Assembly: GCA_965208575.1 (NCBI GenBank)
Contig: CBDBOV010000004.1
Coordinates: 1 to 64,000, forward strand
Direction: 5' to 3'
Origin: Spirochaetia bacterium
Lineage (GTDB): Bacteria > Spirochaetota > Spirochaetia > SZUA-6 > Bin103
DNA: 64,000 bases
Positions within the stretch are counted from its first letter, which is position 1; each line of letters begins with the position of its first letter. A program made the position numbers and the translations under genes. The notes beneath the pieces were generated by a model. The model ran no database searches. It was not told the DNA's origin and saw only the letters and a program-made list of their open reading frames with translations. Positions 6,020 to 42,232 of this stretch are shown here, piece by piece.

Positions 6020-6040
6020 TCCCACACGACACGCCAATGA

Positions 6041-6331
<291 letters not shown>

Positions 6332-6346
6332 GTCCAAGAGGCTACC

Positions 6347-6847: not shown

Positions 6848-7362
6848 CCGACGCCCGCAGCTACGCACTGGCGGCGTTCGCGACCGCGGTGGAGCCGTGG
6901 ATCGATGCACTGCGCAGCGTCCGGGACAAGCTGCAAAGCGAGCCGGAGCTGCTGGCACGGCTCTCGGACAAGGGCATCTCGTTCGATCTCCGTCAGCGGC
7001 AGCTCCGCGCGTCGCTGCCCGAGTCGGCGAGCGCCGAGTGCGGCAACTTCCTCCTCACCCTGATGGAGCGCGGCGACCTGGGGCAACTGGCGGCAATCGT
7101 CGACTGGATGGGCTCGATGGCCAGCGGCGGCCCGCGGGCGCGCATGGCGATCGTTACCACCTCCCACCCGTTGGACGGCGACCAGCGGCAGCGCTTCGTC
7201 GCCACCCTGCAGCGGACCCACGGCGCCGACCTCGGCGTGTCGTTCGCCGTGGACTCCGCGATCGTCGGCGGCGTGGTGGTGCGTATCGGCGACCAGATCG
7301 TCGACGGCAGCGTCCGAACGAGGCTGGAGGCGATCGACGGCGCCCTGGCCCGCGGCGAGTAG
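6844..7362 (+). CDS. atpH: F0F1 ATP synthase subunit delta
   Basis: ARSYA N-terminus, VDSAIVGGVVVRIGDQIVDGSV C-terminus. Confidence 0.93.
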   Translation: MTDARSYALAAFATAVEPWIDALRSVRDKLQSEPELLARLSDKGISFDLRQRQLRASLPESASAECGNFLLTLMERGDLGQLAAIVDWMGSMASGGPRARMAIVTTSHPLDGDQRQRFVATLQRTHGADLGVSFAVDSAIVGGVVVRIGDQIVDGSVRTRLEAIDGALARGE

Positions 7363-7472
7363 CGCGGGGCAACCCGTGACGAGGAAAACGATGACCAACG
7401 ATGCAAGGCCCCGCCGACGGCGGGGCCGACGGCTGCGCCGGGTGGACCGCCGTGTCTGACGAGCGCGGCGGA

Positions 7473-9002: not shown

Positions 9003-9020
9003 CGCCTGGCGAGCCTCCGC

Positions 9021-11416
<2,396 letters not shown>

Positions 11417-11417
11417 C

Positions 11418-11909
11418 GTGAGCGGGTCAGGTCACTCCGAACCCGCGGCGGCGGAGGCCGGCGGCGCGGCTGCGCGGGCGGCGGGCGCCGGGCGCCTGCG
11501 CCTGGAGATACTGACCATAGAGCGCCAGTTGTTCGACGAACAGGTGAGCATGGTGATTGTTCCCAGTGCGGACGGCGTGCTCGGCATACTGCCGCTTCAC
11601 CAGCCGATGCTCACGGCGTTGGAGCATGGCGAGCTGGTGATTCGGATCGACGGACAGGACGACCGGTACGTGGCGATCGGCGGCGGCGTGATGCAGGTGC
11701 TGCCCGATCACGTGGTGGTCCTCGCCGATCGGGCCGAACACGCCGACGAGATCGATCTGGCGCTTGCCGAGGAGGCTCATCAGCGGGCGCAGGAGTCAAT
11801 GGAACGCGGCGCGACCGACCTTGAACTCGGGCATGCGCGTGATGCGCTGCGCCACTCCGCCGTGCGCCTCGCCGTCGCGCGGCGCCACCGCGGGGGCACG
11901 CCGCGCTGA
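11418..11909 (+). CDS. atpC: F0F1 ATP synthase subunit epsilon
   Basis: GVLGILPLH, VLADRAE..DEID..AEEA; last gene of operon. Confidence 0.93.
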   Translation: MSGSGHSEPAAAEAGGAAARAAGAGRLRLEILTIERQLFDEQVSMVIVPSADGVLGILPLHQPMLTALEHGELVIRIDGQDDRYVAIGGGVMQVLPDHVVVLADRAEHADEIDLALAEEAHQRAQESMERGATDLELGHARDALRHSAVRLAVARRHRGGTPR

Positions 11910-23216: not shown

Positions 23217-24380
23217 TCAGCCGCCGCCGGCCGGTGCGGGTTGGACGCCGCCCTCGGTTTCGGCGGCGTCCGGAACGTCGGCGGCATCCGAGGCGCCCGA
23301 CAGCTCCACTTGTTCGAAGTGGAGGGCGGTAGCGCCGACGGCGGCCAGCCCGGTGATTTCCAGCGTCGCCGGATGGAGGATGAGCGATCGGCGCACCCGT
23401 TCGGCGCCTCGATGTTCGCGGAATTCCAGTGTATAGGCGCGGATGTCGCTGGTGTGCCCGGCTCGCGACACGACCTTGAACACGATCACCGTGACCCCTG
23501 CCGAGTAGACGGCGAAGCCGCCGGTCAGGCTGCGGCCGTCCTGCCGCCACGTGAACCGTGGCGCATCGAACAGAATCGCTTCGCCGTCGCTGCCATGGTA
23601 CAGTCCGTTCAGTTCCAGTTGCGCCATGCCCGGCTGTGGCACCGTGGTTCGGACCAGCTCGTGGCGTGCCGCCCTGCCAAGCCGCCGGTAGGTGCCGTTG
23701 CGATCGCTCTCGTCGTCGGAGTCGCTGCTCCAGACGCGCAACCGCAATTCATCGCTCGCGGCCACTTCCGCTACCACCGTTTTCTCGACCGAGGGGACCA
23801 GCGCGTTGTGCATCCGGATTGCGATCCGTGACGCGGTGCGCCGATCTGACCTGTCCCAGGAGTAGATCTCCTGCACTTCGCCGTCGAAGAACGTGATGCG
23901 CCGCTGTTCGGGCTCGAAGTGGATGATATCGACCTGCTGCCGGTCCGGAGCGCCGCTGTCGTCTACCGCACCGCGATACCACGGCCCGGCCAGGAACCGC
24001 TCGAACGGCTCGGCGCCGCTGCTGTCGATCAACTCCTGCCGCGTGCGCGGCCCCGGCCGCCCGGCGGGCGGCGGTTCGGTGGCACCGGCCGCGTGCGCGC
24101 GCCGGTCGCTGCCGGCCGCAACGGTTGGCCCGGCAGCGTTGGCGGCATCGTCCGAGCCCGTAGTGCCGGCATCGGTGGCGGTGCCGCTGCCGGTGCCGCA
24201 GCCGGCGGCCAACAACAGGACTGCCGGCAGCAGGCCCGACGTCGCGCACCAGCGGCGCAGTCGTGCGGCTCGCTTCCGGCATCCGTACTCGTGGGTGGCC
24301 GATCCGAATTGCACCGCGGCTGCTCCGGACGGCACACTACCACGGCGCCGCGCCGACGTGGCAGGCGGCGAGACGGGCAC
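23217..24380 (-). CDS. lipoprotein, possibly pallilysin-related adhesin family
   Basis: LLAAGC lipobox; FERFLAGPWY..FDGEVQEIYSW recalled from spirochaete family; start uncertain. Confidence 0.5.
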   Translation of the reverse strand: MPVSPPATSARRRGSVPSGAAAVQFGSATHEYGCRKRAARLRRWCATSGLLPAVLLLAAGCGTGSGTATDAGTTGSDDAANAAGPTVAAGSDRRAHAAGATEPPPAGRPGPRTRQELIDSSGAEPFERFLAGPWYRGAVDDSGAPDRQQVDIIHFEPEQRRITFFDGEVQEIYSWDRSDRRTASRIAIRMHNALVPSVEKTVVAEVAASDELRLRVWSSDSDDESDRNGTYRRLGRAARHELVRTTVPQPGMAQLELNGLYHGSDGEAILFDAPRFTWRQDGRSLTGGFAVYSAGVTVIVFKVVSRAGHTSDIRAYTLEFREHRGAERVRRSLILHPATLEITGLAAVGATALHFEQVELSGASDAADVPDAAETEGGVQPAPAGGG

Positions 24381-26453: not shown

Positions 26454-28020
26454 GCCGGCGGTCGATACCATCCTGGTACTCGATTTCGGCGGCCAGACCT
26501 GTCAGCTCATCGCTCGCCGCATCAGGGAGAGCGGCGTCTACAGCCGCGTGCTGCCGGGCGACATCCGGTTGGCGGAGGTCGACGCAATGCAGCGTGTGCG
26601 CGGCATCGTGCTGTCCGGCTCCCCGGCATCGGTGCACGACCGCGAGGCCCCCACTCCCGACCGCGACCTGCTGCGGTGCGGCGTGCCGGTGCTGGGCATC
26701 TGCTACGGCATGCAGCACCTCATGCACCGTGGCGGCGGCGTGGTGTCGGCGACGCACGTCAGCGAGTATGGCCGGGCGCGGGTCGAGCGGGTAGGCGAGT
26801 CGCCTCTGTTCGCCGGCATCCCGGCCACGTTCCACTCCTGGATGAGCCACGGCGACGCGGTCGAGCGCATCGCGGACGGATATCGGCGGGTTGCCGGTTC
26901 CGAGTACGGCGGCATTGCCGCGGTCGAGTCGGTGGATGCATCGGCGCCACCGACGTTCGGCATCCAGTTTCATCCGGAAGTATCGCACACCGAGTACGGC
27001 ACCCGCATGCTCGGCAACTTCGCCACCGCCATCTGCGGCGCCCGGCGGCAGTGGAACATGACCTCCTTCGAACGCCGTGCGATGGCCGAGTTGCGCGCCA
27101 CCGTGGGCGACCGCCCGGTCGTGCTGATGATCTCCGGCGGGGTCGACTCCACGGTGGTGGCGGCGTTGCTCCTCAAGGCGTTGCCGGCCGACCAGGTGCA
27201 CCTGCTGTACGTCGACACCGGGCTGATGCGGTTGCACGAGACGGCGGAAGTAAGGGCCATCCTGCAAGGGCTCGGTGCCACCAATGTGCAGGTGGTCGAC
27301 GCATCGGACCGGTTCTACGCCGCGCTCGCCGGCACCACCGAACCGGAGGCGAAGCGGCGCATCATCGGCGACCTGTTCATCGAGGTGCAGCGCGACGCGG
27401 TGCAGCAGGAGTGCGGCGACGGCTTCCTGGCGCAGGGCACGCTGTACACCGACTTGATCGAGTCGGGCAAGGGCGTGGGCACCAAGGCGCACGTCATCAA
27501 GTCGCACCACAACGTCGCCGCGCCGCTGGTCGCCGAGCGGCGCGCGGCGGGCCGGCTGCTGGAGCCCCTGGCAACCCTCTACAAGGACGAAGTGCGGCGC
27601 CTGGGGGAGGGGCTGGGGGTGCCCGCGCGGGTGATCGCGCGCCATCCGTTTCCCGGCCCTGGTCTCGCCGTGCGCATACTCGGCGAGGTAACCCGCGCGC
27701 GCTGCGACCTGCTGCGCGCCGCGGACGCGATCTTTCTCCAGGAGCTGCGCAGCCGCGGCCTGTACGACAGCGTCACGCAGGCATTCACGGTCCTGCTGCC
27801 GGTGCGCTCGGTCGGCGTGACCGGCGACAGCCGCCGCTACGGGGAGGTGGTCGCATTGCGCGCGGTAGTGAGCGACGACTTCATGACCGCGGCAGTGTTC
27901 CCGTTCGAGATGGCCGACCTGCTCGAAATCTCGGCGCGCATCACCAACGAGGTGGTGGCCGTGGGCCGCGTGGTATACGACGTGTCGAGCAAGCCGCCCG
28001 CCACGGTGGAGTGGGAGTAG
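26446..28020 (+). CDS. guaA: GMP synthase (glutamine-hydrolysing)
   Basis: LDFGGQ, GICYGMQ, QFHPEV, SGGVDS, IKSHHNV, KPPATVEWE. Confidence 0.97.
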   Translation: MSEPAVDTILVLDFGGQTCQLIARRIRESGVYSRVLPGDIRLAEVDAMQRVRGIVLSGSPASVHDREAPTPDRDLLRCGVPVLGICYGMQHLMHRGGGVVSATHVSEYGRARVERVGESPLFAGIPATFHSWMSHGDAVERIADGYRRVAGSEYGGIAAVESVDASAPPTFGIQFHPEVSHTEYGTRMLGNFATAICGARRQWNMTSFERRAMAELRATVGDRPVVLMISGGVDSTVVAALLLKALPADQVHLLYVDTGLMRLHETAEVRAILQGLGATNVQVVDASDRFYAALAGTTEPEAKRRIIGDLFIEVQRDAVQQECGDGFLAQGTLYTDLIESGKGVGTKAHVIKSHHNVAAPLVAERRAAGRLLEPLATLYKDEVRRLGEGLGVPARVIARHPFPGPGLAVRILGEVTRARCDLLRAADAIFLQELRSRGLYDSVTQAFTVLLPVRSVGVTGDSRRYGEVVALRAVVSDDFMTAAVFPFEMADLLEISARITNEVVAVGRVVYDVSSKPPATVEWE

Positions 28021-28034
28021 CGGTCCCTGGCCCG

Positions 28035-28688
28035 ATGACGCTGTTCGTCCACCTTGCCACGCCGTTGTTCGTGCTCGCGGTCGCCGGCCACGCGCATGCC
28101 CGCGGGCAAGGCGACGGCTGGGCCCTGCTGCATGCGTACACCGCCGCCGGACTGTCGGCAATTCCGCTGTATCCGCTGTTCGAGATGCTGGCGGCCACCT
28201 TCCCGCCTCTGGTGCAGCCGCGATTGCAGTATGCACGGCTGCTGGCGGTCGACCACGGCCTGCCGCTGATCGCGGCGGCGGCGGCAACGCTCGGCACGCA
28301 CCGGTATCGGCGCCGCAGGCATGAGGCCGGCGCGCTGCGCGCGATCACGTGGCTGGTCGGCATGGGAGGGTTCTTCAGCGTGTATGCCGTTCTCGACCAG
28401 TTCGCCAATCATGCCGACCCAAGCATGTATCGGCTGGTGCTGCTGCCGATGTTGCGGCTGGCAGCGGTTACCGCGACGGCGTACCTGCTGACGCGCGCGG
28501 CGCGCGGTGCGCGGTGGTGGGCAGCCGCCGTGCCCGCCATACCGTGCGTGACCGCGGGCATCGCGTACGCGGGCACACTGCAGCAGCCGGATCTCGCGGC
28601 GGTCGGCGGCGCGGCGTTGCTGGCGGTGTGTCTGCCGCTGGTGTTCGCGAACTCGGTTTCGGAGGCCCCCGACGAGTTGTCCCGGTAG
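28035..28688 (+). CDS. hypothetical integral membrane protein
   Basis: multiple hydrophobic segments; ATG 14 nt after guaA stop. Confidence 0.65.
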   Translation: MTLFVHLATPLFVLAVAGHAHARGQGDGWALLHAYTAAGLSAIPLYPLFEMLAATFPPLVQPRLQYARLLAVDHGLPLIAAAAATLGTHRYRRRRHEAGALRAITWLVGMGGFFSVYAVLDQFANHADPSMYRLVLLPMLRLAAVTATAYLLTRAARGARWWAAAVPAIPCVTAGIAYAGTLQQPDLAAVGGAALLAVCLPLVFANSVSEAPDELSR

Positions 28689-28698
28689 TCGTCGACCG

Positions 28699-29640
28699 GT
28701 GCGCCGCGCGGTGCGGGCGGTTGCCGGCACCTTGCTCATCCTTGCCGCCATGGGCGGCTGCGTACGCTCGCGAACGAGCGACACCTACCTGGTGGCGCTG
28801 GAAGCGCCCTTCTGGCGAGCGGTGAGCGAGGCGTACCCTGACTTGGAAGCCGACCTGAGCGCGTCGGTATTCGCGGGCGGGCGGCGGCTCAGCATAGCCC
28901 ACATCGATTCCGAGCAGCCGCTCGACGCGTTGTACGCACGGCTCGCGCGTGCCCGACCCGCGGGAGTCGTGCTGACGCCGCTGCTGTCTCTGCAGGCCGA
29001 TGAGGTGGCCGCCGCGCACCCCGGCCTGCCCATCGTCGTCCTGACCTGGAGCGGCGAGTCGGCAGCCGGCTCCACCGCGCCGCCCGGCGGACCGAACGTA
29101 ACGTCGGTGTGGTTCTCGCGCAGCGACGCGCTGACCCGCGCCGGAGCGTTGCTGGCCGCCTACATCGCCGGACAGCCGGAGGGCAGAGTCGGCATCCTTG
29201 CCACTGGCGGGCGCGTGGAAGGCGCCCATGTGGCCGCGTTCCGCCGTGGCGTCACGAGCGCCGGCGCCGCGGCCCGCCTGACCGAGCGCCGGATCGACCG
29301 ATCGGCCGACAGCGGGTCGCTGAAACGATCCCTCGATGCCTTGCAGCGGTCGGACGTGCGCGTGGTGTTCCTGGAGGTGGGGTCGCTGACCGGGGCCGCC
29401 CTGGAGGCCCTGGCGCGTGACGGAACGTTCGCGATGGTCAGAAACTGGGGCTATCGCGCCGGCTTCGAAGAGACGGTGCTGGTGTCGGTGAACGATCCTC
29501 CGCTGGCGGCCCTTCGCGCCGGTATCGACGCTGCCCCGGGCAGTACGGTAGAGGTGGCGTCGGAGGTGGTCTGGGGCGCCGGCGCCCCCCTCCCTGACGG
29601 CTCGAACGGCCTTGTCGACGCGGTACGCACCGTTCCGTGA
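28699..29640 (+). CDS. lipoprotein, periplasmic-binding-protein-like
   Basis: AAMGGC lipobox; alpha/beta pattern like BMP/PBP type I. Confidence 0.55.
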   Translation: MRRAVRAVAGTLLILAAMGGCVRSRTSDTYLVALEAPFWRAVSEAYPDLEADLSASVFAGGRRLSIAHIDSEQPLDALYARLARARPAGVVLTPLLSLQADEVAAAHPGLPIVVLTWSGESAAGSTAPPGGPNVTSVWFSRSDALTRAGALLAAYIAGQPEGRVGILATGGRVEGAHVAAFRRGVTSAGAAARLTERRIDRSADSGSLKRSLDALQRSDVRVVFLEVGSLTGAALEALARDGTFAMVRNWGYRAGFEETVLVSVNDPPLAALRAGIDAAPGSTVEVASEVVWGAGAPLPDGSNGLVDAVRTVP

Positions 29641-29685
29641 CACGCTGTCGCCAATCACGCGTCATCCGTATTAGCCTTTGGCCGG

Positions 29686-30093
29686 ATGCGCAACGATTTC
29701 AAGCCCAACACAACAATCGGCGAGGGCTCCCGTTTCGAGGGACAGTGCGCGGTACACGGCAATCTGCGTATCGACGGTCGTTTCGCGGGCCCGGCGCTGC
29801 AGGTCGATCAGCTCTACGTGGGCGCGGCCGGTCGAGTCAAGACCGAGGTCGTGGCCAACGTGGTGGTCGTGGAGGGGGTAGTGGTGGGCAACATCAGCGC
29901 CGCCAGCCGCGTGTTGCTGCTTCCCAGCGCGCGCGTGTTGGGCAACTTGCTCACGCCCGAGCTGGTTCTGCAGGACGGCGCGATGCTGGACGGAAACTGT
30001 TCCGTCGGACAGGTTCACGGCGAGGAAGCGCGGCGCATGATTCGCGACCTCTGGGAGGGGCGAACAGAACCGGCCACAGGCACCGGCGGCTGA
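29686..30093 (+). CDS. bactofilin
   Basis: TTIGEGSRFEG..GNLRIDGRF..VVEGVVVGNI. Confidence 0.88.
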   Translation: MRNDFKPNTTIGEGSRFEGQCAVHGNLRIDGRFAGPALQVDQLYVGAAGRVKTEVVANVVVVEGVVVGNISAASRVLLLPSARVLGNLLTPELVLQDGAMLDGNCSVGQVHGEEARRMIRDLWEGRTEPATGTGG

Positions 30094-30114
30094 CCCCGCG
30101 GACGCCGGCGGGGG

Positions 30115-30144
30115 TTGACAGGGCGCCCCCGGGCGCCATACGTT
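30115..30144 (+). promoter_or_regulatory. tRNA-Glu promoter
   Basis: TTGACA-N18-TACGTT. Confidence 0.6.
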
Positions 30145-30156
30145 ATCGATGCCCGT

Positions 30157-30228
30157 GGCCCCTTCGTCTATCGGCTAGGACATGAGACTCTCATTCTCAA
30201 AAGAGGGGTTCGATTCCCCTAGGGGCTA
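30157..30228 (+). tRNA. tRNA-Glu(CTC), CCA not encoded
   Basis: acceptor GGCCCCT/AGGGGCT, anticodon arm TGAGA-CTCTCAT-TCTCA, T loop TTCGATT. Confidence 0.95.
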
Positions 30229-30305
30229 TCCGCGCGTCTCTGTCACCGGGACGCCGTCCACACACTCATGAATCCCCCGACTGATTGACCCCGAGGAATC
30301 GCATT

Positions 30306-30764
30306 ATGGATCTCGCACGAGCGTTCTCTCCGGCGGCGATTCTGGTACCGTTGCGGGCCAGGAGCGACGATGACGCGCTGCGCCAGTTGGTCGAACGGCT
30401 GGTCGTCGCCACCGGCCTCAGCGACCCGGACCGCATCATGCGCCATCTCACCGAGGAGGCGGCACTCAGGGCCACCCTGGTCGGCCACGGCGCCGGCATC
30501 GTGCACACGCGGCTGGATGCGCTCGATGCGCCGGTGGCCGCGCTCGGCATCCTCGCACCGGGACAGTCGTTGCACCTCGGCTCCGGCCTGCAGTTCGTCG
30601 TGGACGTGATCTTCCTCGTGCTGTCGCCCCTGTCGCCGCCGGAGCCGCACCTGGAACTGGTGTCGTCGATTGCCACGCTGGTGCGCGATCCGGTGCTGAA
30701 CGGGTTGCGCGCCGCCGCCGATGCGCACGACGCGCTGGCGGCGCTGGCCGAATTCGGATCGTAG
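30306..30764 (+). CDS. PTS IIA (Ntr/fructose-type) domain protein
   Basis: TLVGHGAGIVHTR phospho-His motif, VIFLVLSP, HLELVS. Confidence 0.8.
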   Translation: MDLARAFSPAAILVPLRARSDDDALRQLVERLVVATGLSDPDRIMRHLTEEAALRATLVGHGAGIVHTRLDALDAPVAALGILAPGQSLHLGSGLQFVVDVIFLVLSPLSPPEPHLELVSSIATLVRDPVLNGLRAAADAHDALAALAEFGS

Positions 30765-30783
30765 TCAGGGTCGCCGCGGTAGG

Positions 30784-32019
30784 TCAGGAGAGGAACACGT
30801 CGAGGAACCGCTCGGTTTCGAAGTGCTCCTCGAACAGGCGTTCGATTTCCGCGATCTTGCCGGTGTCGAATACCTGCAGCTTGGTGTTCTGGTAGAGACG
30901 GAACAAGCGCTCTTCGGTAGCCGCCGAGTCCTCGCTGACGAACAGTGCCGGGAGGTTCGCGCGAATCAACTCGTCGCGCACCGGCGGCTCGACCTTCTCG
31001 GTTTCGCCGCAGGTCAGAATCAGGCCGCCGACGCCGCCGCGATGCAGAACGTCCTCGTGAAACTCGATGATCTGCCTGATGCGCGGCGTGGAACTGGCGC
31101 CGATGATCAGCACGTCGCCCGGCCCCACGTAGTGGCGAAGCTGCGACTGCAGGTGCTGCGCCGGCAGCGACACCAGCTTGATGGCCGCACAGGGCCGCCG
31201 CCAGGCGATCGTTTCGGGGTCGCCCAACGGCTGCACGTGAGGGAGGGCACCGAGAATCACCCGCATCGACGGATGCGGCAGGTCGGGTATCGTCGGCATG
31301 TAGCCGAACACGTGCATCGGTGCGCCGTTCGCGGTGGCGTAGCGCTGGTTGATCAGATCCTCGGTAATGTACCGCTTTACCTGTCCGGCCTTCTCCGGGA
31401 TCACCTTGTTGACGATCAGACCGCTGACCCGGCACCCGTGATACAGAAAATAGGTCAGGTCGACGTCGATGGTGTCGAGCGCGCGCCCTATGCCCCCGCC
31501 GGAGACGAAGATCGTCTGCGCGCCGAGCAACTTGCCGACCGCGGCGTTGGACAGCCCCACCACGCTGCCTACTCCCGGGTGCCCGGACCCTTCGGCGATG
31601 ATGATGCGCCGGTCGGCGAGTTGATCCACCGAGCGCTTGATTTCCAACGACAGCGCGCGTGTCAACCGCGTGCGGTACTTCGAATCGAGGTAGGAGCGGG
31701 TGAAATTGGTGGAGAACCGTACCGGCGAAAGCTTCTCGAGCGGCAGGTCGGCGAGGCCGGCGAATTCGCCGATCAACTCCACGTCCTTGTCGACCGTAAC
31801 CCCGCCGGCCGCTCGCACGAGTTGCTGGCCGACCGGTTTCAGGTAGCCGATCTGGCGCGCGTCGAGGTGCTTTCTGAGCTGGGAGATGATGCCGAGACTG
31901 GTAACCGTCTTGCCGGCGTGCTGGCGAAACCCGGCGAGGTACACCACCACGGGCCGGTGCCGTCCGCGGTCATGGTTCCCGGCGCCGGCGCCGCCGCCGC
32001 TGCCGGCGCTGCCGGTCAC
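30784..32019 (-). CDS. BioD-like P-loop ATPase with DRTGG-like domain (phosphotransacetylase N-terminal family)
   Basis: HAGKT, GYLKPVGQ, AEGSGHPGVGSVVGLSNA, GGGIGRALD, LIVNKV. Confidence 0.8.
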   Translation of the reverse strand: MTGSAGSGGGAGAGNHDRGRHRPVVVYLAGFRQHAGKTVTSLGIISQLRKHLDARQIGYLKPVGQQLVRAAGGVTVDKDVELIGEFAGLADLPLEKLSPVRFSTNFTRSYLDSKYRTRLTRALSLEIKRSVDQLADRRIIIAEGSGHPGVGSVVGLSNAAVGKLLGAQTIFVSGGGIGRALDTIDVDLTYFLYHGCRVSGLIVNKVIPEKAGQVKRYITEDLINQRYATANGAPMHVFGYMPTIPDLPHPSMRVILGALPHVQPLGDPETIAWRRPCAAIKLVSLPAQHLQSQLRHYVGPGDVLIIGASSTPRIRQIIEFHEDVLHRGGVGGLILTCGETEKVEPPVRDELIRANLPALFVSEDSAATEERLFRLYQNTKLQVFDTGKIAEIERLFEEHFETERFLDVFLS

Positions 32020-33926
32020 TCGAACAGGCGGGCTATCCGCGCGGCGTATCGCTCGGCAATCACGTGGCGGCGCATCTTCTGGGTATGGGTAAGCTCGTCG
32101 CCCACCTCGAACGGGCGGTCGATCAACGCGATGCGGGCGATTCTTTCGAAGCTCTTGAAGCCGTTCTTGGCGCTTACGCGGCTCTGCACCTCGCCCCGGA
32201 TCAGCCGCTCGATCGGCTCCGCGGTGACCAGGGTTGCCAAGTCGTCGCCTGCCACGCCGTGGGCGGCGGCGTACGTCTTCACCGCGGCCAGCTCCGGAAC
32301 CACGAGCGCACCGAGCAGGCGCTGGTCCTGGCCGACCACCATGATGTGTTCGACATACTCCGACTGGCGCACCAGATCCTCTATCGGCTCCGGCTCGATG
32401 TTCTCGCCGCCGAGCAGCACGATGGTGTCCTTGGCCCTGCCGGTGATGCTTATCTCACCGTTCACGGTCTGGGTGCCGAGATCGCCGGTATTCAGCCAGC
32501 CGTCGCCCGACAGCACCGCGGCGGTGTCGCCGACGCGCTTGTAGTAGCCCTTCATTATCTGCGGACCGCGCACGTGGATCACGCCCTGCTGTCCGGGGAG
32601 CGCCGCGCCGCCGTCCTCCTTGACGATCTTCACCTCGGTGCCGGAGATCGGCGGACCGACGGTGCCGCTCACCGGGTGGCGGTAGGGGCGTACCGACACC
32701 AGCGGCGCCGCCTCGGTGAGCCCATAGCCCTCCAGCACCACGATTCCGGCGGCGGCGAAGAAGTCGTCAACGTATCCCGGCAGCGCTCCGGCGCCGGAAA
32801 TGCCGGCCTTGAAGCGGGTACCGAGGCGTGCGGTGATCTTCTTGAACACCAGCACCTTGCCCAGAAGCGCCAGCGGCGTGAGCAGGACCAGCGGCACCGC
32901 CGCCGCCAGCACGTCCAGCATGCGCGGCCTCACCTGGTAGCGCGGCACCCGGCCGCGCAGCAGCCGCGACATGGCGCTGTGCGCGGCGCCCACCGCGACG
33001 AAGAACTTGAACAGCGCCGCCTTGATTCCGCCCTCCGCCTCCACGGTTCGGTAGACGCCCGCGCGAACGCCCTCCCACACGCGCGGCACACTCGGGAAAT
33101 AGGTCGGATTGGCGGCGATCAGGTCCGCCAGCATCACTTCGCGGATCGGCTTCGAGAACGCTATGCCGGCGCCGGCGAACAGCGCCGCGTACTCGCACAC
33201 GCGCTCGTAGGAGTGCCACACCGGCAGCACCGACAGCAGCATGTCGCCGGGACCGAGCGGCACGGCGTCCGGGATCACGTCGACCTGGTACACGAAATTG
33301 GCGTGGGTGAGCATCACGCCCTTCGGTTCGCCGGTCGTGCCGGAGGTGTAGATGATGGTGGCGAGGTCCTCGGGCCGGCCCTTGGCCAGCTCCGCGCGCA
33401 GCAGCGCCTCCGCCTGCCCATGCTCGGCGCCGGCGCGCACCAGGTCGTCCAGCGTGATCACCTCGAGGCCGCGGCTCCGGGCCTGGGCCAGCGCCGCGCT
33501 GCCGATGTCGGTGCTGTCGAGCACGATGGCGCGCGCCAGCTTCGGCAGCCGCTCCTTGATGCCGCCCACCTTGGCCAACTGCGCGGCATTCTCGACCGCG
33601 GCCACCGCGCAGTCGGCGTGCTCCAGGATGTAGGCGATCTCGTCAGCGGTCGAGTCGCTGCCGCGCGGCACGTCCACCGCGCCGAGCGCCAGGACCGCGA
33701 GGTCGATCAGCAGCCACTCCTTGCGGGTGTCGCAGATCAACCCGACGTGGTCGCCGCGAGCCACGCCGTTGGCCGCCAGTCCGGCGGCGACATTGGCGAC
33801 CTCGGACCAGAGCTGAGCGAAGGTGGTGGGCTGAAAGTCGCCGCCGCCGTTCCTGGTCAGCAGCGCGGTGCCGGCGCTGTGCTCCTCGCACACCTGCTGC
33901 CAACGCTGCGAAAGGGTACCCGACAT
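32016..33926 (-). CDS. long-chain fatty acyl-CoA ligase
   Basis: YTSGTTGEPKG, EGYGLTE, WLNTGDLG, GRAKD..GGENIEP; GAGGAG RBS. Confidence 0.92.
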   Translation of the reverse strand: MSGTLSQRWQQVCEEHSAGTALLTRNGGGDFQPTTFAQLWSEVANVAAGLAANGVARGDHVGLICDTRKEWLLIDLAVLALGAVDVPRGSDSTADEIAYILEHADCAVAAVENAAQLAKVGGIKERLPKLARAIVLDSTDIGSAALAQARSRGLEVITLDDLVRAGAEHGQAEALLRAELAKGRPEDLATIIYTSGTTGEPKGVMLTHANFVYQVDVIPDAVPLGPGDMLLSVLPVWHSYERVCEYAALFAGAGIAFSKPIREVMLADLIAANPTYFPSVPRVWEGVRAGVYRTVEAEGGIKAALFKFFVAVGAAHSAMSRLLRGRVPRYQVRPRMLDVLAAAVPLVLLTPLALLGKVLVFKKITARLGTRFKAGISGAGALPGYVDDFFAAAGIVVLEGYGLTEAAPLVSVRPYRHPVSGTVGPPISGTEVKIVKEDGGAALPGQQGVIHVRGPQIMKGYYKRVGDTAAVLSGDGWLNTGDLGTQTVNGEISITGRAKDTIVLLGGENIEPEPIEDLVRQSEYVEHIMVVGQDQRLLGALVVPELAAVKTYAAAHGVAGDDLATLVTAEPIERLIRGEVQSRVSAKNGFKSFERIARIALIDRPFEVGDELTHTQKMRRHVIAERYAARIARLFE

Positions 33927-33928
33927 GG

Positions 33929-34360
33929 TTAAGCTCCTCGTAGACACAGCCACTCTGCTTCGGCTGCCAGTTCCTCTCCGACGTATACCTTGCCGCTCTG
34001 CCGGATGGCTACGGCGGTGCGGCGCTTGGTGACTACCACGATGCGAACCTCTTCGCCCGGTCGCACCGGACGGCGAAACTTCGCCTTCTCGACGCTGGCC
34101 AGAAACGCGCGCTCCGGCTCGCCGCCGTCGTCCGGCGCCGGCTCGCGCGCGGCAGCCAGACCGGCGCCGCCGCATTGCGCCATGCACTCAACCAGCAACA
34201 CGCCGGGCACCACCGGAAAACCGGGGAAGTGGCCGGCGAAGAACGGTTCGCTTGGGTCGAATCGCTTGTGTCCGACGATCTCGTCGTCGCCGGCAACGGA
34301 CAGCCGGTCAACGAACAGGAACGGGGGACGATGCGGAATCAGGTCGGTAATCGGCCTCAT
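33929..34360 (-). CDS. fabZ: 3-hydroxyacyl-ACP dehydratase
   Basis: [38 protein letters not shown]. Confidence 0.9.
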
Positions 34361-34367
34361 GGCGCTT

Positions 34368-35600
34368 TCAGATAATGCCCAGGGCGCGGCCCTGCCTGGC
34401 GCACACCTCCAGGGCACGGTCCAGTTCGTCGTCGCTGTGGATGGCCATGTAGGAGGTGCGAATGAGCGCCCGCCCCGGCGGGACGGCCGGGGCCACGACC
34501 GGGTTTGCATACACGCCATGCTCGATCAGCGCCCGGTAGAACCGGAACATCAGCAGGTCGTCTCCGATGATGAGCGGAATGATCGGGGTTTGCGCATCGC
34601 CGACATCGAATCCGAGCCGTTTGAACTCGGCGATCATGCGCGTGCCGATCGCCTGCAGGCGCTGCACGTGATGCGGCTCCTCCTTCATGATGCGCAGCGC
34701 GGTGGAGACCGCGGCGATCGTTGCCGGAGGCATGCTCGCGCTGAAGATGAATGAGCGGGCGTGGTGCTTGATATGGTCGACCACGTCCGCGTCGGCGGCG
34801 ATGAAGCCGCCGACGGCGCCGAACGACTTGGAGAACGTGCACATCACCACGTCCGCGGTGTCGTAGCAGTCGAAGTGTTCCTGAGAGCCGCGGCCGGTGG
34901 CGCCGATCACGCCGAGCGCGTGCGCCTCGTCGAGGTAGACGCGGGCGCCGTAGCGGCGGGCGAGCGCGCCGATCTCCGGCAGTGGAGCGATGTCGCCCTC
35001 CATCGAAAACACGCCGTCGGTAACGATCAGCTTGCCGCCGTCGTCGTCCACCGTGTTCAGGAGCCGTTCCAGCTCGGCGAGGTCGTTGTGCTGATAGCGG
35101 TGGATGCGGGTGCCGCCGGTGGTGCCGGCGGCAAGCAGAATGCCGTCCACCAGGGAGCCGTGGTTGAGCCGGTCGGAGAATACGTGGTCGTGGCGGCCCG
35201 AGAGCGCCTGAATTGCACCGAGGTTGGTCTGATAGCCGGTGGTGAAGGAGAGCGCCGCCGGTTTGCCGGCGAACTCTGCCAGCGCGGTCTCCAGCTCCTC
35301 GTGAAGACGCAACGTACCGTTCAGGAAACGCGATCCGGAGCAACTCGTGCCGTAGCGCCGGGTGGTTTCGATCGCCGCCTCGATGACGCGCGGATCCCAT
35401 GACAGGCCGAGGTAGTTGTTGGAGCCGATCATGATCAGCTCGCGGCCGTCGATTATGACGCGCGAGCCGTGATTCTCCTCGACGGCGGTGTAGTAGGGAT
35501 AGAACCCGATAGCCTCGATCTTGGCCGCTCTCTGTGCGGCCATGCTGTGCACCTTCTGGAACAGGTCGACGGAATTGCTGGTGGTAGTTGGTTGCTCCAT
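34368..35600 (-). CDS. alpha-oxoamine synthase, serine palmitoyltransferase-like
   Basis: [46 protein letters not shown] lysine, FSASMPP. Confidence 0.85.
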
Positions 35601-35724
35601 TCTATCTTGTCATCGTGTTGGTTATCGGCGTGACTGTCGACTCAATGGGTACACCCAATGGCGCACCGTGTAAAGATCAACCTCCGCGCTCCCGCACTCC
35701 GGCACTCCCGCACTCCGCGCAGGC

Positions 35725-36384
35725 TCAGGGAGATGACGGGGTGCGGTTGGTCAGGGCGCGCAACAGCGCGGCGAATTCCGGCGCCGCCCATTCGCGGACG
35801 CCGATGATGCGCGCCAGGATGGAGCCGTCCTTGTCGATGATGTAGCTCATCGGGAGGGTGCGGGCGCCGTATGCCGCCGATGTCTCGCCGCTGCTGTCGA
35901 GCAGGATCTGAAACGAGAGCTCCAGCTCGGCGGCGAATCGGCGCACCTGCGCCGCATCCTCCTGGAGATTGATCGCCAACATGGTGAACTCCGCGGTGTC
36001 GCCGAGCTCGTCGTGCAGTTCCTGCAGGTCGGGCATCTCGATGCGGCACGGCGCGCACCACGTGGCCCAGAAATTCAGGAACACCACCGAGCCGCGGTAG
36101 CGCTGCAGCGAGTGGACCTCTCCGGCCAGGTCGGCCAGGTCGAATTCCACCGCCTGCACCGAGCGGCTCGGCAGTTGGAAGCCGAGGTCCTGCATCCGGT
36201 CGGTCAGCGCACGGTCTGGGGTCGCGGCGCCGCCGGAAACCGGCGCCTCGGCTCCCGGCGCCGGTTGCGCCTGCGAAATGGAAGCCGGTGCCGGATCCTG
36301 CCTCTCGCGACGTCCAAACGCATGCCCGGAGGTCGCCGCCAGGCCGGCCGCGAGCACCAGCAGGAGCAGCCGTGGCGTGCGCAT
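35725..36384 (-). CDS. TlpA/ResA thiol-disulfide oxidoreductase
   Basis: signal peptide, LNFWATWCAPC. Confidence 0.9.
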   Translation of the reverse strand: MRTPRLLLLVLAAGLAATSGHAFGRRERQDPAPASISQAQPAPGAEAPVSGGAATPDRALTDRMQDLGFQLPSRSVQAVEFDLADLAGEVHSLQRYRGSVVFLNFWATWCAPCRIEMPDLQELHDELGDTAEFTMLAINLQEDAAQVRRFAAELELSFQILLDSSGETSAAYGARTLPMSYIIDKDGSILARIIGVREWAAPEFAALLRALTNRTPSSP

Positions 36385-36451
36385 CGCGGCGCGCCGGAAC
36401 GGCCGCTCCGGCGCGCGGTCACTTCCCATTGCGACCGATGGTACCGGACGG

Positions 36452-37147
36452 CTACCCACCGAACAAGGTGCCTGCCAGCACCGTGCCGTTGAACATGGCG
36501 TGTGCAAACACCACGCGATGCAGGGACGGGCGCTGCTGGAACAACAGGGCGAGAGCGGCGCCCATCAGGACGGCGAACACGGCCGCGCCCCATCCCTGGT
36601 AGAGATGGCCGGCGCCGAACAGCAGGGCGGAGCCGAGCGTGGCCAGCCACGCCGGCGCTCCCGCGCCCCGGAGCAGGGTCAGGCAGTAGGCGCGGAAGTA
36701 GGACTCCTCGCGGTAGGCTCCCGCCACCACGAATGCCGCCGCGAGCGGGATTTGGCCGACGCGTTCCAACTGCCATCGGTGGCCTCGCCGCAACACCCCG
36801 CTTACCGGTTCCGGGAACACGTTCACGAGCGCGCTCACGGCCGCCAGGGCCGCAACCATCGCGGCCGCGATCAGCAGCGCCTCGCCGGCGTCGCGGCCGC
36901 GTACCCGCCAGTCGACGGTCGCGCGCGCGGTGTCGAAGCGGAGGATCGGCAGCATCACGCCTGCCTGGAGCGCCGCGAGCAGGGCGCCCGCGGCCAGGGT
37001 GCGCGGCAGCGGCACCAGCAGCGCCGGAAGTGAAAGCAGCACGTACACCACGCCCAGGCGTGCCAGGGCGGCGGCTGCACTGCGTCCGGACGGCGTCCCG
37101 GTGGCCGGCTCCCCCGTTCCGGCGAGTGTCCGCGGCGTGGCGCGCAT
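36452..37147 (-). CDS. CPBP (CAAX/Abi) intramembrane metalloprotease
   Basis: EESYFR, FGAGHLYQG, HAMFN motifs. Confidence 0.85.
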   Translation of the reverse strand: MRATPRTLAGTGEPATGTPSGRSAAAALARLGVVYVLLSLPALLVPLPRTLAAGALLAALQAGVMLPILRFDTARATVDWRVRGRDAGEALLIAAAMVAALAAVSALVNVFPEPVSGVLRRGHRWQLERVGQIPLAAAFVVAGAYREESYFRAYCLTLLRGAGAPAWLATLGSALLFGAGHLYQGWGAAVFAVLMGAALALLFQQRPSLHRVVFAHAMFNGTVLAGTLFGG

Positions 37148-37239
37148 CGGCACCATCATACTCGACACATTCGAGCTTCGGCGGGTTGTGGGAGCGGTGC
37201 GATTGAAGCGCGAGTGGACGGCATGCCGTTGGTTGGTGT

Positions 37240-38661
37240 GTGGCAGAACGAACAAGGCATCACCCAATCCGGATCACGCCCGCGGTAGCGGCCGCGGGTG
37301 CCGCGGTGGGCTACCTCCTGGCGGCGGACCACCTGCCGGGCTCCTCCCCCAACGCCGTGCTGGCACTGCTCCTCGCCGGGCCGGCCTGCTGCCTGGTCGC
37401 GGCGGCTCAGGCGTGCGGCGGTGCGTACCGGCGCCTGCTGCTGGCCGCGGCGGCCGGTTGCGCGCTGGCCGGCGGAGCCGAGCTCGGCGAGCGCATCGCC
37501 GGCGCCGGCGCCGGCGCCGGCCTGCCGCTGGAGCAGGTGGACGAGTTGCACGGCGTCCTGCTTCAGGATGCATCGTTGCGCGATGCCGGCGTCCACTACC
37601 GCATCGCCGTGGATCAGGTCGGTTCCGCGCGCCTGGATGCGCACGCATCCGCGCGCTTCGTTGCGCACGTTGCGTTGCCGGCGGAGGTTGCCGGACGCGC
37701 GTACCGCGGCCGGCGGGTGGCTGTGGACGGTGTGGTGCTGTTCACCGCCGGTGCCGGGGCGGCGGTGCGCGGACGCGCGGACGAGGTGCGCCGCAGCAGC
37801 TTCGCGTCGTCGCTCGCCGCCGCCCGCGCCACCATGCGCAGCCGCCTGGAGCAGCTCGTCCTGGATCTGCGCGGGCCCTCTTCCGCGCTGCTCGCGGCGG
37901 TGTTGCTCGGCGACCGGCACCACCTCACGGCGGAGCAGATGGCGGGATTCCGGCGTGCCGGAGCGCTCCATCTGCTGGCCCTGTCCGGGCTCCACGTCGG
38001 ACTGGTATACCTGTTGGCGGTATGCGCCGGACGCGCGCTGGCGATGGCCGGGATGGCGCTGGTGCCGCGCTGGCAGCGGGGCTGGGTAGCGGGCGCCGGG
38101 TTGCTCGGCGTCGGGGCGGTATTCCTGTACGTGGAGCTTGCCGGTGCGCGCCCCTCCCTGGCGCGAGCCACCACCATGCTCGCGCTGGCGCGTCTGGCCG
38201 CGGCCTCCGGCCGCCACCCGGGTGCCGTGAACGTGCTCGCCCTGTCCGCGCTGGTGATCGTCGCGACCGACCCGCGCTCGGTGCACGAGTTGTCGTTTCA
38301 GCTCTCCTATGCCGCGCTGCTGGGTATTCTGCTGGCCGGACCGCCGCTGGCGCGCCGCCTGCCGGGCCTGCTGCCGCCGGGGGCGCGCGCCGCGGCCGGC
38401 ATGGCGGCAGGCGCGCAACTGGCCACCCTGCCGCTGGTGCTCGCGACGTTCGGCCGGGCGCATCCGATCGGGTTGCTGTCCGGACTGGTGCTGGTACCGT
38501 GCACGGCGCTGTTCCTGTGGGCAGGCATCGGCGCCGTGGCGTTGTCGGCGCTCAGCGGCGGCGCGCTCGATCCGCTTACCCGCGTCCCGCTGCACCTGTT
38601 GTATAGTGCACTTGCCATGCTCAACAGTCTGTTCGGGCACGCGCCCGGAGTGCGCTGGTGA
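37240..38661 (+). CDS. comEC: ComEC/Rec2 competence membrane protein
   Basis: FRRAGALHLLALSGLH, SFQLSY; no metallo-beta-lactamase tail. Confidence 0.85.
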   Translation: MAERTRHHPIRITPAVAAAGAAVGYLLAADHLPGSSPNAVLALLLAGPACCLVAAAQACGGAYRRLLLAAAAGCALAGGAELGERIAGAGAGAGLPLEQVDELHGVLLQDASLRDAGVHYRIAVDQVGSARLDAHASARFVAHVALPAEVAGRAYRGRRVAVDGVVLFTAGAGAAVRGRADEVRRSSFASSLAAARATMRSRLEQLVLDLRGPSSALLAAVLLGDRHHLTAEQMAGFRRAGALHLLALSGLHVGLVYLLAVCAGRALAMAGMALVPRWQRGWVAGAGLLGVGAVFLYVELAGARPSLARATTMLALARLAAASGRHPGAVNVLALSALVIVATDPRSVHELSFQLSYAALLGILLAGPPLARRLPGLLPPGARAAAGMAAGAQLATLPLVLATFGRAHPIGLLSGLVLVPCTALFLWAGIGAVALSALSGGALDPLTRVPLHLLYSALAMLNSLFGHAPGVRW

Positions 38662-39572
38662 ACCACAATTCACCGGCCGAGATTCGTGCCGAGTTGGACC
38701 GTCTCACGGTGGAGCCCAAGAAGCGGTGGGGGCAGAACTTCATGGTCAACCCGCGCACTCGGCGGAAGCTGATCGACACCCTGGAGATCGGGAAGGGCGA
38801 GACGGTGTGGGAGATCGGCCCCGGCCTCGGCGCGCTCACCGAGGAACTGGTGCCGCGATGTGCCCGGCTGGTATTGTTCGAAATCGATCACGGCCTGATC
38901 CGCCACCTGAACGACGAATTGCGCGATCACGCCCACGTCCGCATCGTGGCGGGCGACGTTCTGCGCACCTGGCGGCAGGCCAGGGTCGAGCACGGCGTAC
39001 CGGATCGGATCGTCGGCAACCTGCCGTACCGCAGTGCGTCGGCCATCGTCGCCGCGCTGCTGGAACACGACGCGCGCCCGGTGCATGCCGTGTTTACCGT
39101 CCAGAAGGAGCTGGCGGACCGCATCGTGGCGCCGGCCGGATCGCGCAACTACTCGTCGTTCTCGGTGCTCTGCCAGTGCCTGAGCGAGGTGCGTGCGTAC
39201 GGTGAACTGGCGCCCGGCACGTTCTACCCCGTCCCCGAGGTCACTTCCACGGTGATCGGCCTGCGCCCGGGCGGCGCGGCACGCCGCGTGCGCAATCGTG
39301 ACGTGCTGTTCGCGCTGATCCGCGCCGCCTTCCAGGCGCGCCGCAAGACGCTGCGCAACAACCTGCTCGCCGGGGGCGGCTTCGGGCTCAGCAAGGCGGA
39401 TCTCCTGGACGCGGTCGAAGACGCCGGCGTGAATCCTGGCAGCCGCGCCGAGGAACTGGCTCCGGCTACCGTTGTGCGGCTCGCCGACGCGCTGGCCCGC
39501 AAGGGCGCCGCGGTGCCGGCGCAGCCGCCGTTCTGCCCCCCGGACGACGACGAGGAGACGGCGGGCGGATAG
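38658..39572 (+). CDS. rsmA: 16S rRNA adenine dimethyltransferase
   Basis: KKRWGQNF, EIGPGLGALT, GNLPY, F.ARRKTLRNNL. Confidence 0.95.
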   Translation: MNHNSPAEIRAELDRLTVEPKKRWGQNFMVNPRTRRKLIDTLEIGKGETVWEIGPGLGALTEELVPRCARLVLFEIDHGLIRHLNDELRDHAHVRIVAGDVLRTWRQARVEHGVPDRIVGNLPYRSASAIVAALLEHDARPVHAVFTVQKELADRIVAPAGSRNYSSFSVLCQCLSEVRAYGELAPGTFYPVPEVTSTVIGLRPGGAARRVRNRDVLFALIRAAFQARRKTLRNNLLAGGGFGLSKADLLDAVEDAGVNPGSRAEELAPATVVRLADALARKGAAVPAQPPFCPPDDDEETAGG

Positions 39573-39575
39573 CTG

Positions 39576-40454
39576 TCAGATGACGCCGTGTTCCTTGAGC
39601 ACGCCGTGCAGCTTCTGCTTGCCGGGCTCGGTGAGCGGGGTCATCGGCAGACGGTAGCTCTCCTCCAGCAACCCGGCCGCGTGCATTGCCCCCTTGACCG
39701 GTATCGGGTTGGTGTCCAGGCCCATCAGGGCGTTGATCACCGGCAGAATCTCGTAGTGCACCGCGCGCGCCCCGGCGGTGTCGCCGTCGAGCATGCGCTG
39801 CACCAGGTCCACCATCTTCCCCGGCAGCAGGTTGCTGGTCACCGAGATGATCCCGTTGCCGCCGAGCGCCATCAGGGGCAGCGTGATCGCGTCGTCGCCG
39901 CTGAGCACCGTGAAGCCGGGCGGCCGGCGCAGAATCAGGTCCATCATCTGGTCAATGTCGCCACTGGCCTCCTTGACGCCGACGATGTTGGGGTGCTCGG
40001 CGAGCGCGAGCATGGTTTCGTTGTCGATGTTCTTGCCGACCCGGCCCGGGATGTTGTACACGATCAGCGGCAGGTCCACCGAGTCGGCGAGCAACTGGAA
40101 GTGGCGCAGAAAGCCGGTGGCGGACGGCTTGTTGTAGTAGCCGGCGACGTGCAGGCTGGCCTCGGCGCCCACCTCCTTGGCGAACTTGGTGTGCTCGAGC
40201 GCCTCGACGGTATTGTTCGATCCGCAGCCGGCGATCACCGGTACGCGGCCCGCGCACTGCTCCACCACCACGCGGATCACCTCGTGGTGTTCCTCGTCGG
40301 TCAGCGTCGGGCTCTCGCCGGTCGTGCCGACCGGGACCAGCCCGGTGATGCCGGCGTCGATCTGGCGGTCGACCAGCTTCCTGAGGGTGTCGCGGTCCAA
40401 CTCGCCGGAAGCGGTGAACGGCGTCACCAGCGCGGTAAAGGTTCCTTCAAACAT
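39576..40454 (-). CDS. dapA: 4-hydroxy-tetrahydrodipicolinate synthase
   Basis: GTTGESPTL, YYNKP, YNIPGR, GVKEASG, TNPIPVK. Confidence 0.95.
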   Translation of the reverse strand: MFEGTFTALVTPFTASGELDRDTLRKLVDRQIDAGITGLVPVGTTGESPTLTDEEHHEVIRVVVEQCAGRVPVIAGCGSNNTVEALEHTKFAKEVGAEASLHVAGYYNKPSATGFLRHFQLLADSVDLPLIVYNIPGRVGKNIDNETMLALAEHPNIVGVKEASGDIDQMMDLILRRPPGFTVLSGDDAITLPLMALGGNGIISVTSNLLPGKMVDLVQRMLDGDTAGARAVHYEILPVINALMGLDTNPIPVKGAMHAAGLLEESYRLPMTPLTEPGKQKLHGVLKEHGVI

Positions 40455-42159: not shown

Positions 42160-42232
42160 GGGCCGCTAGCTCAGTCGGTAGAGCAACAGCCTTTTAAGCT
42201 GTGGGTCGACGGTTCGAATCCGTCGCGGCTCA
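42160..42232 (+). tRNA. tRNA-Lys(TTT), CCA not encoded
   Basis: acceptor GGGCCGC/GCGGCTC, anticodon arm ACAGC-CTTTTAA-GCTGT, T arm GACGG-TTCGAAT-CCGTC. Confidence 0.96.

Follow-up and report, generated by a model that had tools for sequence, protein, structure and literature searches.

We analyzed a 64,000-nucleotide (nt) stretch of DNA from a Spirochaetia bacterium (GenBank assembly GCA_965208575.1, contig CBDBOV010000004.1, positions 1 to 64,000; this whole stretch is hereafter called the window), which contains four closely spaced minus-strand genes, the first of them encoding a predicted alpha-oxoamine synthase (AOS) that resembles serine palmitoyltransferase (SPT, Spt). An interpretation made from this DNA alone, hereafter the sequence-only reading, had presented the four genes as a candidate sphingolipid or amino-lipid operon. 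Its description of the arrangement, with junctions of 7 nt and 2 nt and a GTGA stop/start overlap, is confirmed by the coordinates, and the family names that it assigned (AOS/Aminotran_1_2, FabA-like/FabZ, AMP-binding and AAA_26) agree with Pfam and NCBIfam scans. L-numbers (L001 etc.) are labels of the DNA loci compared with the window, of which those nearest to it come from Spirochaetia or Spirochaetaceae genomes. The four window genes can be taken as real because L001 contains a homologue of each, at 89-93% identity and in unchanged order. The features, with functions as predicted, are as follows.

34368..35600, minus strand: gene 1 (AOS), Spt-like, pyridoxal phosphate (PLP)-dependent long-chain alpha-oxoamine synthase, 410 amino acids (aa), with His147 and the PLP lysine Lys258
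33929..34360, minus strand: gene 2 (FabZ), FabZ 3-hydroxyacyl-acyl carrier protein (ACP) dehydratase, 143 aa
32016..33926, minus strand: gene 3 (ligase), long-chain fatty acid AMP-forming ligase with coenzyme A (CoA) or ACP as acceptor, 636 aa
30784..32019, minus strand: gene 4 (AAA_26+DRTGG protein), stand-alone "phosphotransacetylase family protein", about 390-411 aa, 411 when counted from GTG
35674..35648, minus strand: promoter-like motif, TTTACA + 17 nt + TACMA-type box, ~50 nt upstream of the gene 1 start

The promoter-like pattern is also found upstream of the gene 1 orthologue in L001-L004, and a copy in L006 has a spacer one base longer; there was one unrelated match, in L033. A sigma-70 consensus scan of positions 29500-37500 detected no promoter; neither for promoters nor for terminators did it yield anything exceeding chance. 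The motif at 35648..35674 is the probable start of the operon and, because it is common to the window and L001-L004, the four genes are probably co-transcribed, as one transcript, in this organism. No riboswitch was identified by Rfam over positions 28000-40000, where a tRNA-Glu was the sole match.

Placement of the alpha-oxoamine synthase

The best match of gene 1 in the PDB is the SPT of S. multivorum (365.8 bits), followed by the best BioF/Kbl-type entry (291.9 bits), and the gap widens when a profile of the 36-sequence gene 1 family is used (476 for SPT vs 335 for the BioF/Kbl-type entry). In the NCBIfam ranking, the SerpalmtaseCFB model came first, with 466 against a cut-off of 640, and the bioF model TIGR00858 came third (369, cut-off 426); the two Kbl models were both missed (362 vs 460 and 317 vs 493), and gene 1 also remained below the other SPT equivalog cut-offs, BetaP (371 vs 500) and AlphaP (303 vs 670). 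SerpalmtaseCFB was the top model, ~95-140 bits over bioF, for the window AOS and for all 15 further proteins of the spirochaete clade that were scanned, and the controls, E. coli BioF, E. coli Kbl and Alicyclobacillus BioF, each scored best on their own model. Three Spt-like enzymes encoded in the plasmid gene trios described below likewise score under the curated SPT cut-off (377-487). In a fold search, the gene 1 model matched SPT with Z 49.6 (root-mean-square deviation, rmsd, 2.0; 390 aligned residues).

Two motifs had been singled out by the sequence-only reading as typical of SPTs, and both are present in gene 1, YPYY at residues 34-37 and [13 protein letters not shown] at residues 84-96. 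The blocks that discriminate gene 1 from BioF and Kbl are [12 protein letters not shown] and TFSKS, the latter occurring as CTFSKS where GTFSKS is expected. We further mapped, by hand on the PDB alignment, 19 residues of S. multivorum SPT taken from PMC10196870 and PMC13692747 (these and the other papers cited here are used for their available portions, to which all statements attributed to them refer). Sixteen of the 19 are identical in gene 1, several of the 19 being common to all AOS enzymes, BioF and Kbl included. In S. multivorum numbering, the residues that are kept include Asn52, Gly80, Ser81, Phe83, His138, Thr241, Ser243 and Lys244, and those that are changed are Phe28, Ala79 (Ser in gene 1) and Met271 (Ile in gene 1). 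The best 120 homologues of gene 1 are 59-96% identical to it, and the names listed among them are of Spirochaetia type, except for one unassigned "bacterium"; judged by these relatives, gene 1 is a member of a broad Spirochaetia family and is not peculiar to this cluster.

Phylogenetic trees were built with 4 outgroup rows and with Spt references that were classified by hidden Markov models rather than assayed, leaving out HemA, CqsA and the cysteate acyltransferase CFAT. In a 22-row tree, a subset of a 46-row set kept for speed, the spirochaete proteins form a clade (100/99) on the Spt side (96/88), and approximately unbiased (AU) tests rejected a grouping of this clade with either Kbl (p 0.001) or BioF (p 0.009). 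When 29 of the 150 best profile relatives were added, in a 51-row tree, the clade again fell on the Spt side (98/96). Both trees and the NCBIfam and PDB rankings thus side with Spt-like enzymes, as the sequence-only reading had anticipated in preferring an SPT-type over a BioF or KBL enzyme, and the assignment of gene 1 to the Spt-like clade as a long-chain alpha-oxoamine synthase appears well supported.

Three other identities were considered for gene 1 and are not supported. For BioF, the TIGR00858 cut-off is missed, bioA, bioB and bioD are lacking nearby, and the AU test gives p 0.009; for Kbl, the models are missed, the SVRFICGT-type motif differs, tdh is lacking, and the AU p is 0.001. 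None of bioA, bioB, bioD or tdh had a match in the window or in the lineage loci defined below. For cysteate acyltransferase (CFAT/SulA), the score is 201 bits vs 366 for SPT, and the Lys280, Ala82 and Asn117-loss features are absent: at these CFAT positions, mapped by hand through S. multivorum SPT from the available descriptions, gene 1 has Ala288 for Lys280, Ser90 for Ala82 and Asn126 for Asn117.

Among the 150 best profile relatives, 3 are fused to bCerS-like domains (P0365, P0380 and P0487) and 12 contain an acyl-AMP ligase domain; no fusion of an AOS with FabZ or with gene 4 was found among them. A separate group of Spt-like proteins among the profile relatives is fused to FemAB-like GNAT domains (P0378, P0379, P0386, P0408, P0421 and P0433), two of these also containing PilZ.

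Putative acyl-supply genes and the ceramide steps

Gene 2 passes the NCBIfam FabZ model PRK00006 (116.4 vs 113) and misses TIGR01750 (109 vs 155). The catalytic motif of FabZ is a His/Glu dyad, and it is kept in 120/120 homologues. The best 120 of 2767 FabZ matches are all at least 64% identical, a sample that stops short of the wider clade. Gene 2 directly follows the AOS gene in 13/13 AOS-bearing loci, and 13 of the best 120 FabZ matches seemingly share contigs with AOS matches, as judged from equal sizes, which amounts to linkage inside the lineage only. It is probably a general FabZ of type II fatty acid synthesis (FASII). Gene 3 contains the Pfam domains AMP-binding and AMP-binding_C_3, reaches no NCBIfam cut-off among the best 25 models listed, and falls into Atlas clusters that carry the names AMP-dependent synthetase and long-chain acyl-CoA synthetase. 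A ligase encoded in the spt locus of a beta-proteobacterium (L091), AasR-like by context, resembles it only locally, over 127 aa, and BioW shows no similarity to it. Together, FabZ and the ligase would be general acyl-supply enzymes, not pathway-specific ones. The placement of an acyl ligase beside an SPT-like gene, to which the sequence-only reading drew attention, is real but not new, given that the fatty-acid-activating ligase AasR has been described beside spt (PMC9386255). Gene 3 was also considered as an AasR-type acyl-ACP synthetase; this identity was rejected on account of the lack of an ACP match nearby (no ACP-like gene was matched in the window) and of the similarity to the L091 ligase being only local.

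For the ceramide steps, we followed the account of the bCerS/CerR pathway in PMC11087976. Plasmid records contain three spt-GNAT-epimerase trios, in which gene context suggested a bCerS-like second gene and a CerR-like third gene. The tblastn queries, drawn from plasmid spt loci and likewise identified by gene context, were three proteins of the bCerS-like kind and four of the CerR-like kind. Neither set matched anything in the window or, within 10 kb of gene 4, in L001-L018, which bears out the statement of the sequence-only reading that these genes are absent at the locus, and weak epimerase matches appeared only in L055 and L058. Spt without adjacent bCerS/CerR is known from Bacteroidota producers and from 33 Cloacimonadota metagenome-assembled genomes, and the same Black Sea study lists Spt-like genes from 38 phyla, frequently with no bCerS/CerR beside them (PMC11334938); spirochaetes are not named in its main text or preprint as available, and its supplement may include Spirochaetota. 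No report of sphingolipid synthesis in spirochaetes was found among the literature matches listed or in the available portions of PMC9246714, most subscription papers being outside reach.

An Spt-like gene of a Priestia megaterium plasmid (L084:5938-7152; 522 on the CFB model) is located beside methyltransferase and acyltransferase genes, and this locus contains no annotated bCerS/CerR pair.

Gene 4 as a stand-alone Pta N-terminal module

Gene 4 matches Pfam AAA_26 and, partially, the phosphotransacetylase (Pta) model NF004167, and its Atlas name is phosphotransacetylase-family protein. Searches of the PDB by sequence and profile gave no meaningful match, so that the protein was placed by structure search and pairwise profiles only; similarly, Pfam DRTGG has no match to the window gene 4 itself, and this domain was located by structure and profile. 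The AF2 model (pLDDT 92) matches dethiobiotin synthetase (DTBS) with Z 19.8 (rmsd 3.0, 215 aligned) and the N-terminal domain of E. coli Pta with Z 12.4, and residues 232-362 match the DRTGG domain of AF1212 with Z 14.5 (rmsd 2.8, 116 aligned). When profiles were compared with hhalign, gene 4 aligned with E. coli Pta residues 13-372 at 91.6% over 338 columns; the comparison with BioD gave 62% over 173 columns. These results identify gene 4 as a Pta N-terminal module that stands alone (AAA_26+DRTGG) rather than as BioD. The earlier label of a "BioD-like ATPase" is therefore apt for the shared fold and P-loop but not for the protein as a whole, which has a DRTGG domain and matches the regulatory N-terminus of Pta over its full length. 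Dethiobiotin synthetase itself was rejected as an identity, given the DRTGG domain (BioD is a single domain of ~225 aa), the absence of a match to the BioD model in NCBIfam, and the loss of the LGCIN loop of E. coli BioD, in place of which gene 4 has GIGRA.

In class II Pta, the N-terminal region that gene 4 matches is regulatory (PMC12724200). The two-domain architecture is alike in gene 4, in the class II Pta N-terminus and in AF1212; gene 4 differs in lacking the PTA_PTB catalytic domain and in keeping a canonical GKT P-loop, which is absent in E. coli Pta. The GKT P-loop, Lys44, Asp60/62 and Glu126 are invariant and can be aligned to DTBS residues, and gene 4 therefore probably binds nucleotide and may hydrolyze it. 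No paper on the function of stand-alone AAA_26+DRTGG proteins was found among the matches listed.

Linkage across relatives

An alignment scan of species genomes with gene 4 yielded 130 relatives, and the top 80 were retained as loci with flanks of up to 10 kb; because these favor close kin, the sampling favors linkage. Fourteen loci constitute what we call the lineage, namely, L001-L007, with the ligase, and 7 sister-clade loci that lack it and have AOS and FabZ; the other 66 loci are outside the lineage. An AOS gene is located within 10 kb of gene 4 in 13/80 loci, and all four genes are found together in 6/80 (L001-L006), which form one subclade, L007 ending inside the ligase. Outside the lineage, none of the 66 loci contains an AOS, FabZ or ligase gene, and 50 of them extend more than 4 kb upstream. 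In the gene 4 tree, the window groups with the 14 lineage loci in a single clade (99), nested in a part dominated by ilv/leu-linked loci, which indicates one origin of the neighborhood rather than repeated recruitment. The idea of a dedicated four-gene pathway does not fit this distribution: the sequence-only reading had itself named unlinked genes in relatives as grounds for abandoning its proposal, and this is largely what was found.

In half of the lineage loci (7/14; L007-L012 and L018), an opposite-strand DOMON gene lies directly before gene 4, in L007 between the ligase and gene 4. Neither the window nor L001-L006 has this gene, and gene 4 presumably abuts the ligase here because the intervening gene is missing in the subclade. 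The DOMON gene lies, for example, at L007:1095-1445 and L008:9363-9971, and its full-length copies have an apparent signal peptide. Of the 13 AOS loci, 12 keep synteny for the unrelated TlpA gene and 11 each for the likewise unrelated ComEC and KsgA genes, so that plain synteny would explain the neighborhood with no pathway needed.

The commonest neighbor of gene 4 is a citramalate synthase gene, directly upstream in 22/80 loci with gaps as tight as those in the window; a representative passes TIGR00977. These copies are found at the ends of ilv/leu operons, on the plus strand (L013, L014, L022, L028, L030, L031 and 16 more). The stand-alone Pta N-terminal family is thus a candidate for a regulatory or partner role in the synthesis of branched-chain amino acids, and the link to citramalate synthase provides a lead for this uncharacterized protein family. 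A predicted complex of citramalate synthase with gene 4 (the L022 pair) scored 0.00, which gives no answer and was counted neither way. Other contexts of gene 4 are hexokinase (8/80) and glutamate-synthase-type genes (6/80). An OlsF-like amino-lipid acyltransferase (175 vs a cut-off of 620; L029:4682-5770), probably unrelated, is encoded a few genes from gene 4, and this family is also present in L019, L037 and L050, which are hexokinase-linked loci.

Comparison with known systems

By sequence, profile and structure, the closest known counterpart of gene 1 is the Bacteroidota-type SPT (S. multivorum, PDB 3A2B/8GUH; NCBIfam NF047600), with which it shares the YxY(F/Y), GSRFLNGT and TFSKS motifs and most of the serine-site residues; in neither case are bCerS and CerR adjacent (PMC11334938 for the Bacteroidota side). 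Gene 1 differs in its score below the model cut-off, in an identity of ~40% when structurally aligned, and in belonging to a spirochaete clade of its own. The neighborhoods also differ: two Bacteroidales copies adjoin a diacylglycerol-kinase-family gene, whereas gene 1 adjoins fabZ and an acyl ligase.

The rhodobacterial acpR-spt and aasR genes (Caulobacter, E. coli BL21; PMC9386255) resemble the window in that an acyl-AMP-forming ligase is encoded near spt and could supply an acyl thioester. However, the window has no ACP gene, and this locus is therefore not an acpR-spt/aasR system; moreover, the similarity of gene 3 is local, the ligase is absent from the sister clade, and the window AOS lies outside the alpha/beta Spt group. 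The comparison with the spt-bCerS-cerR ceramide cluster is similarly mixed. The window AOS belongs to the same broad clade as the trio enzymes (Aureispira, Rubrobacter and Streptomyces plasmids) and the Spt-bCerS-like fusions, but the lineage loci differ in having neither a bCerS-like nor a CerR-like match in the range searched. Finally, the sequence-only reading saw an echo of the logic of BioW, BioF and BioD, and a ligase, an AOS and a BioD-fold protein do occur here in the same order of chemistry. The analogy nevertheless breaks down at each step, given that the AOS is not BioF, the ligase is unlike BioW, BioA and BioB are absent, and gene 4, with its DRTGG domain, is not BioD.

Possible function of the locus

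The explanation that we favor, and consider somewhat better than an even bet, is a lineage-specific lipid operon, belonging to one clade of uncultured Spirochaetia, in which an Spt-like enzyme condenses serine, acyl supply is general, finishing is left to unlinked genes and gene 4 is a passenger. Under this scheme, the AOS would join L-serine to a long-chain acyl thioester, releasing CO2 and yielding a 3-ketosphinganine-type base. FabZ would supply acyl-ACP made de novo and the ligase would activate free fatty acid, both being co-transcribed with the AOS, although this locus could do without the ligase. Any N-acylation and reduction would depend on genes at other sites in the genome, as is the case in Bacteroidota. 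Gene 4 would be a Pta N-terminal module that binds nucleotide and is connected with central or amino-acid metabolism, and it would have joined the neighborhood once, in the ancestor of the lineage.

Several observations weigh against parts of this explanation, and they bear on different alternatives. With regard to gene 1, the SPT cut-offs are missed, and the 51-row tree leaves the spirochaete AOS clade as its own branch in an unresolved polytomy, together with curated Spt, the trio-associated enzymes, the Spt-bCerS-like fusions, and FAAL-ACP-AOS and FemAB-GNAT-AOS fusions. In view of the missed cut-off and the separate branch among fusions, we regard serine specificity as no more than likely. 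A less probable alternative is that gene 1 is a long-chain AOS whose product is not a serine-derived sphingoid base: the enzyme may accept Gly or Ala, which would lead to 1-deoxy-type bases, or may form a free aminoketone lipid never converted to ceramide. The lack of bCerS-like and CerR-like genes in the window and in L001-L018 would fit such a product, as would the replacement of Ala79 by Ser and of Met271 by Ile near the substrate site and the acceptance of Ala and Gly by SPTs (PMC10196870). Yet the serine-site residues Asn52, Gly80, Ser81, His138, Ser243 and Lys244 are retained, the cysteate-type features are absent (201 bits for CFAT vs 366 for SPT), and producers that have Spt but no adjacent bCerS/CerR are known (PMC11334938). 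We consider it unlikely that the AOS is a housekeeping BioF/Kbl-type enzyme, promiscuous in the manner of ThAOS, in a cluster unrelated to sphingolipids. Many JGI labels do read "8-amino-7-oxononanoate synthase", the second-best PDB match is of this type, Kbl is nearly equal to SPT in the fold search (Z 47.7, rmsd 2.3, 393 aligned), and the AU rejection of joining BioF and Kbl together is borderline (p 0.048). These points are outweighed by the missed bioF and Kbl cut-offs, with scores ~100 bits under that of the SPT model, by the trees that place the AOS with Spt, by the motifs that differ at [12 protein letters not shown] and TFSKS, and by the absence of matches to bioA, bioB, bioD and tdh in the window or lineage loci.

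The other observations that tell against the favored operon with a passenger concern gene 4. AOS, FabZ and gene 4 lie within 4 kb of each other in 13/13 AOS loci, across ~50% gene 4 identity; the window and L001-L003 have the GTGA overlap in frame, with leaders that differ by multiples of three (in L004-L006, gene 4 has its own starts); and in L015, which lacks both DOMON and the ligase, gene 4 begins 19 nt behind FabZ. In addition, AOS and gene 4 homologues seem to share contigs in other Spirochaetia, although this is inferred from equal sizes only (832790, 587326, 70388, 47768, 358645 and 849842). All this fits real co-expression, and a functional link is possible. It would be compatible with a dedicated four-gene pathway, in which the BioD-fold protein performs an ATP-dependent ligation, such as an N-acylation that replaces bCerS, or a regulatory step; the upstream motif common to the window and L001-L003 and the invariant P-loop and DTBS-alignable residues, by which gene 4 could be catalytic, suit that scheme as well. 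We nevertheless regard it as highly improbable, given that the set is complete in 6/80 loci, the ligase is missing in 7/14 and DOMON intervenes in 7/14 lineage loci, gene 4 follows citramalate synthase in 22/80 loci and keeps company with hexokinase in 8 and glutamate-synthase-type genes in 6, it aligns over its full length to the regulatory region of Pta, and none of the 150 representatives fuses an AOS to gene 4 or FabZ. Equally far-fetched, in our estimate, is a broader scenario whereby many Spirochaetia make sphingolipid-type membrane lipids through an Spt clade of their own, in the absence of canonical bCerS/CerR, and gene 4, with its BioD-type ATP site, was recruited here to finish or regulate the base.

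That Spirochaetia make long-chain-base lipids at all is, in our judgment, an evenly balanced proposition. If gene 1 is a true SPT, sphingolipid-type synthesis would extend to Spirochaetia, for which it is unreported in the literature matches listed, in the portions available; the surprise would be limited because Spt-like genes are already known from 38 phyla, often without adjacent bCerS/CerR (PMC11334938). The locus is thus a testable hint of sphingolipid-type synthesis in Spirochaetia and not a new four-gene pathway. The predicted enzyme is soluble and directly assayable, and its homologues are widespread, nearly all those with names being of Spirochaetia type.

Other features of the window

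A TlpA-type thioredoxin gene lies upstream of gene 1, and a PTS EIIA gene (30285-30764, plus strand) is convergent with gene 4 across a 19-nt gap; in L006 the EIIA gene is inverted, and in L005 an inserted gene has displaced it. The synteny between the window and its relatives ends past the PTS EIIA gene and near a tRNA-Lys (42160-42232, plus strand); the tRNA-Glu is at 30156-30231, also on the plus strand. Past these breaks, the window contains ABC transporter, toxin-antitoxin-like and catabolic genes. A protein with a pallilysin beta-barrel domain (Pfam PF18663) is encoded at 23217-24032 on the minus strand. Spirochaetes are usually described as having V-type ATP synthases; positions 5075-11909 (plus strand) hold an F-type ATP synthase operon, as read from the translations without a family scan.

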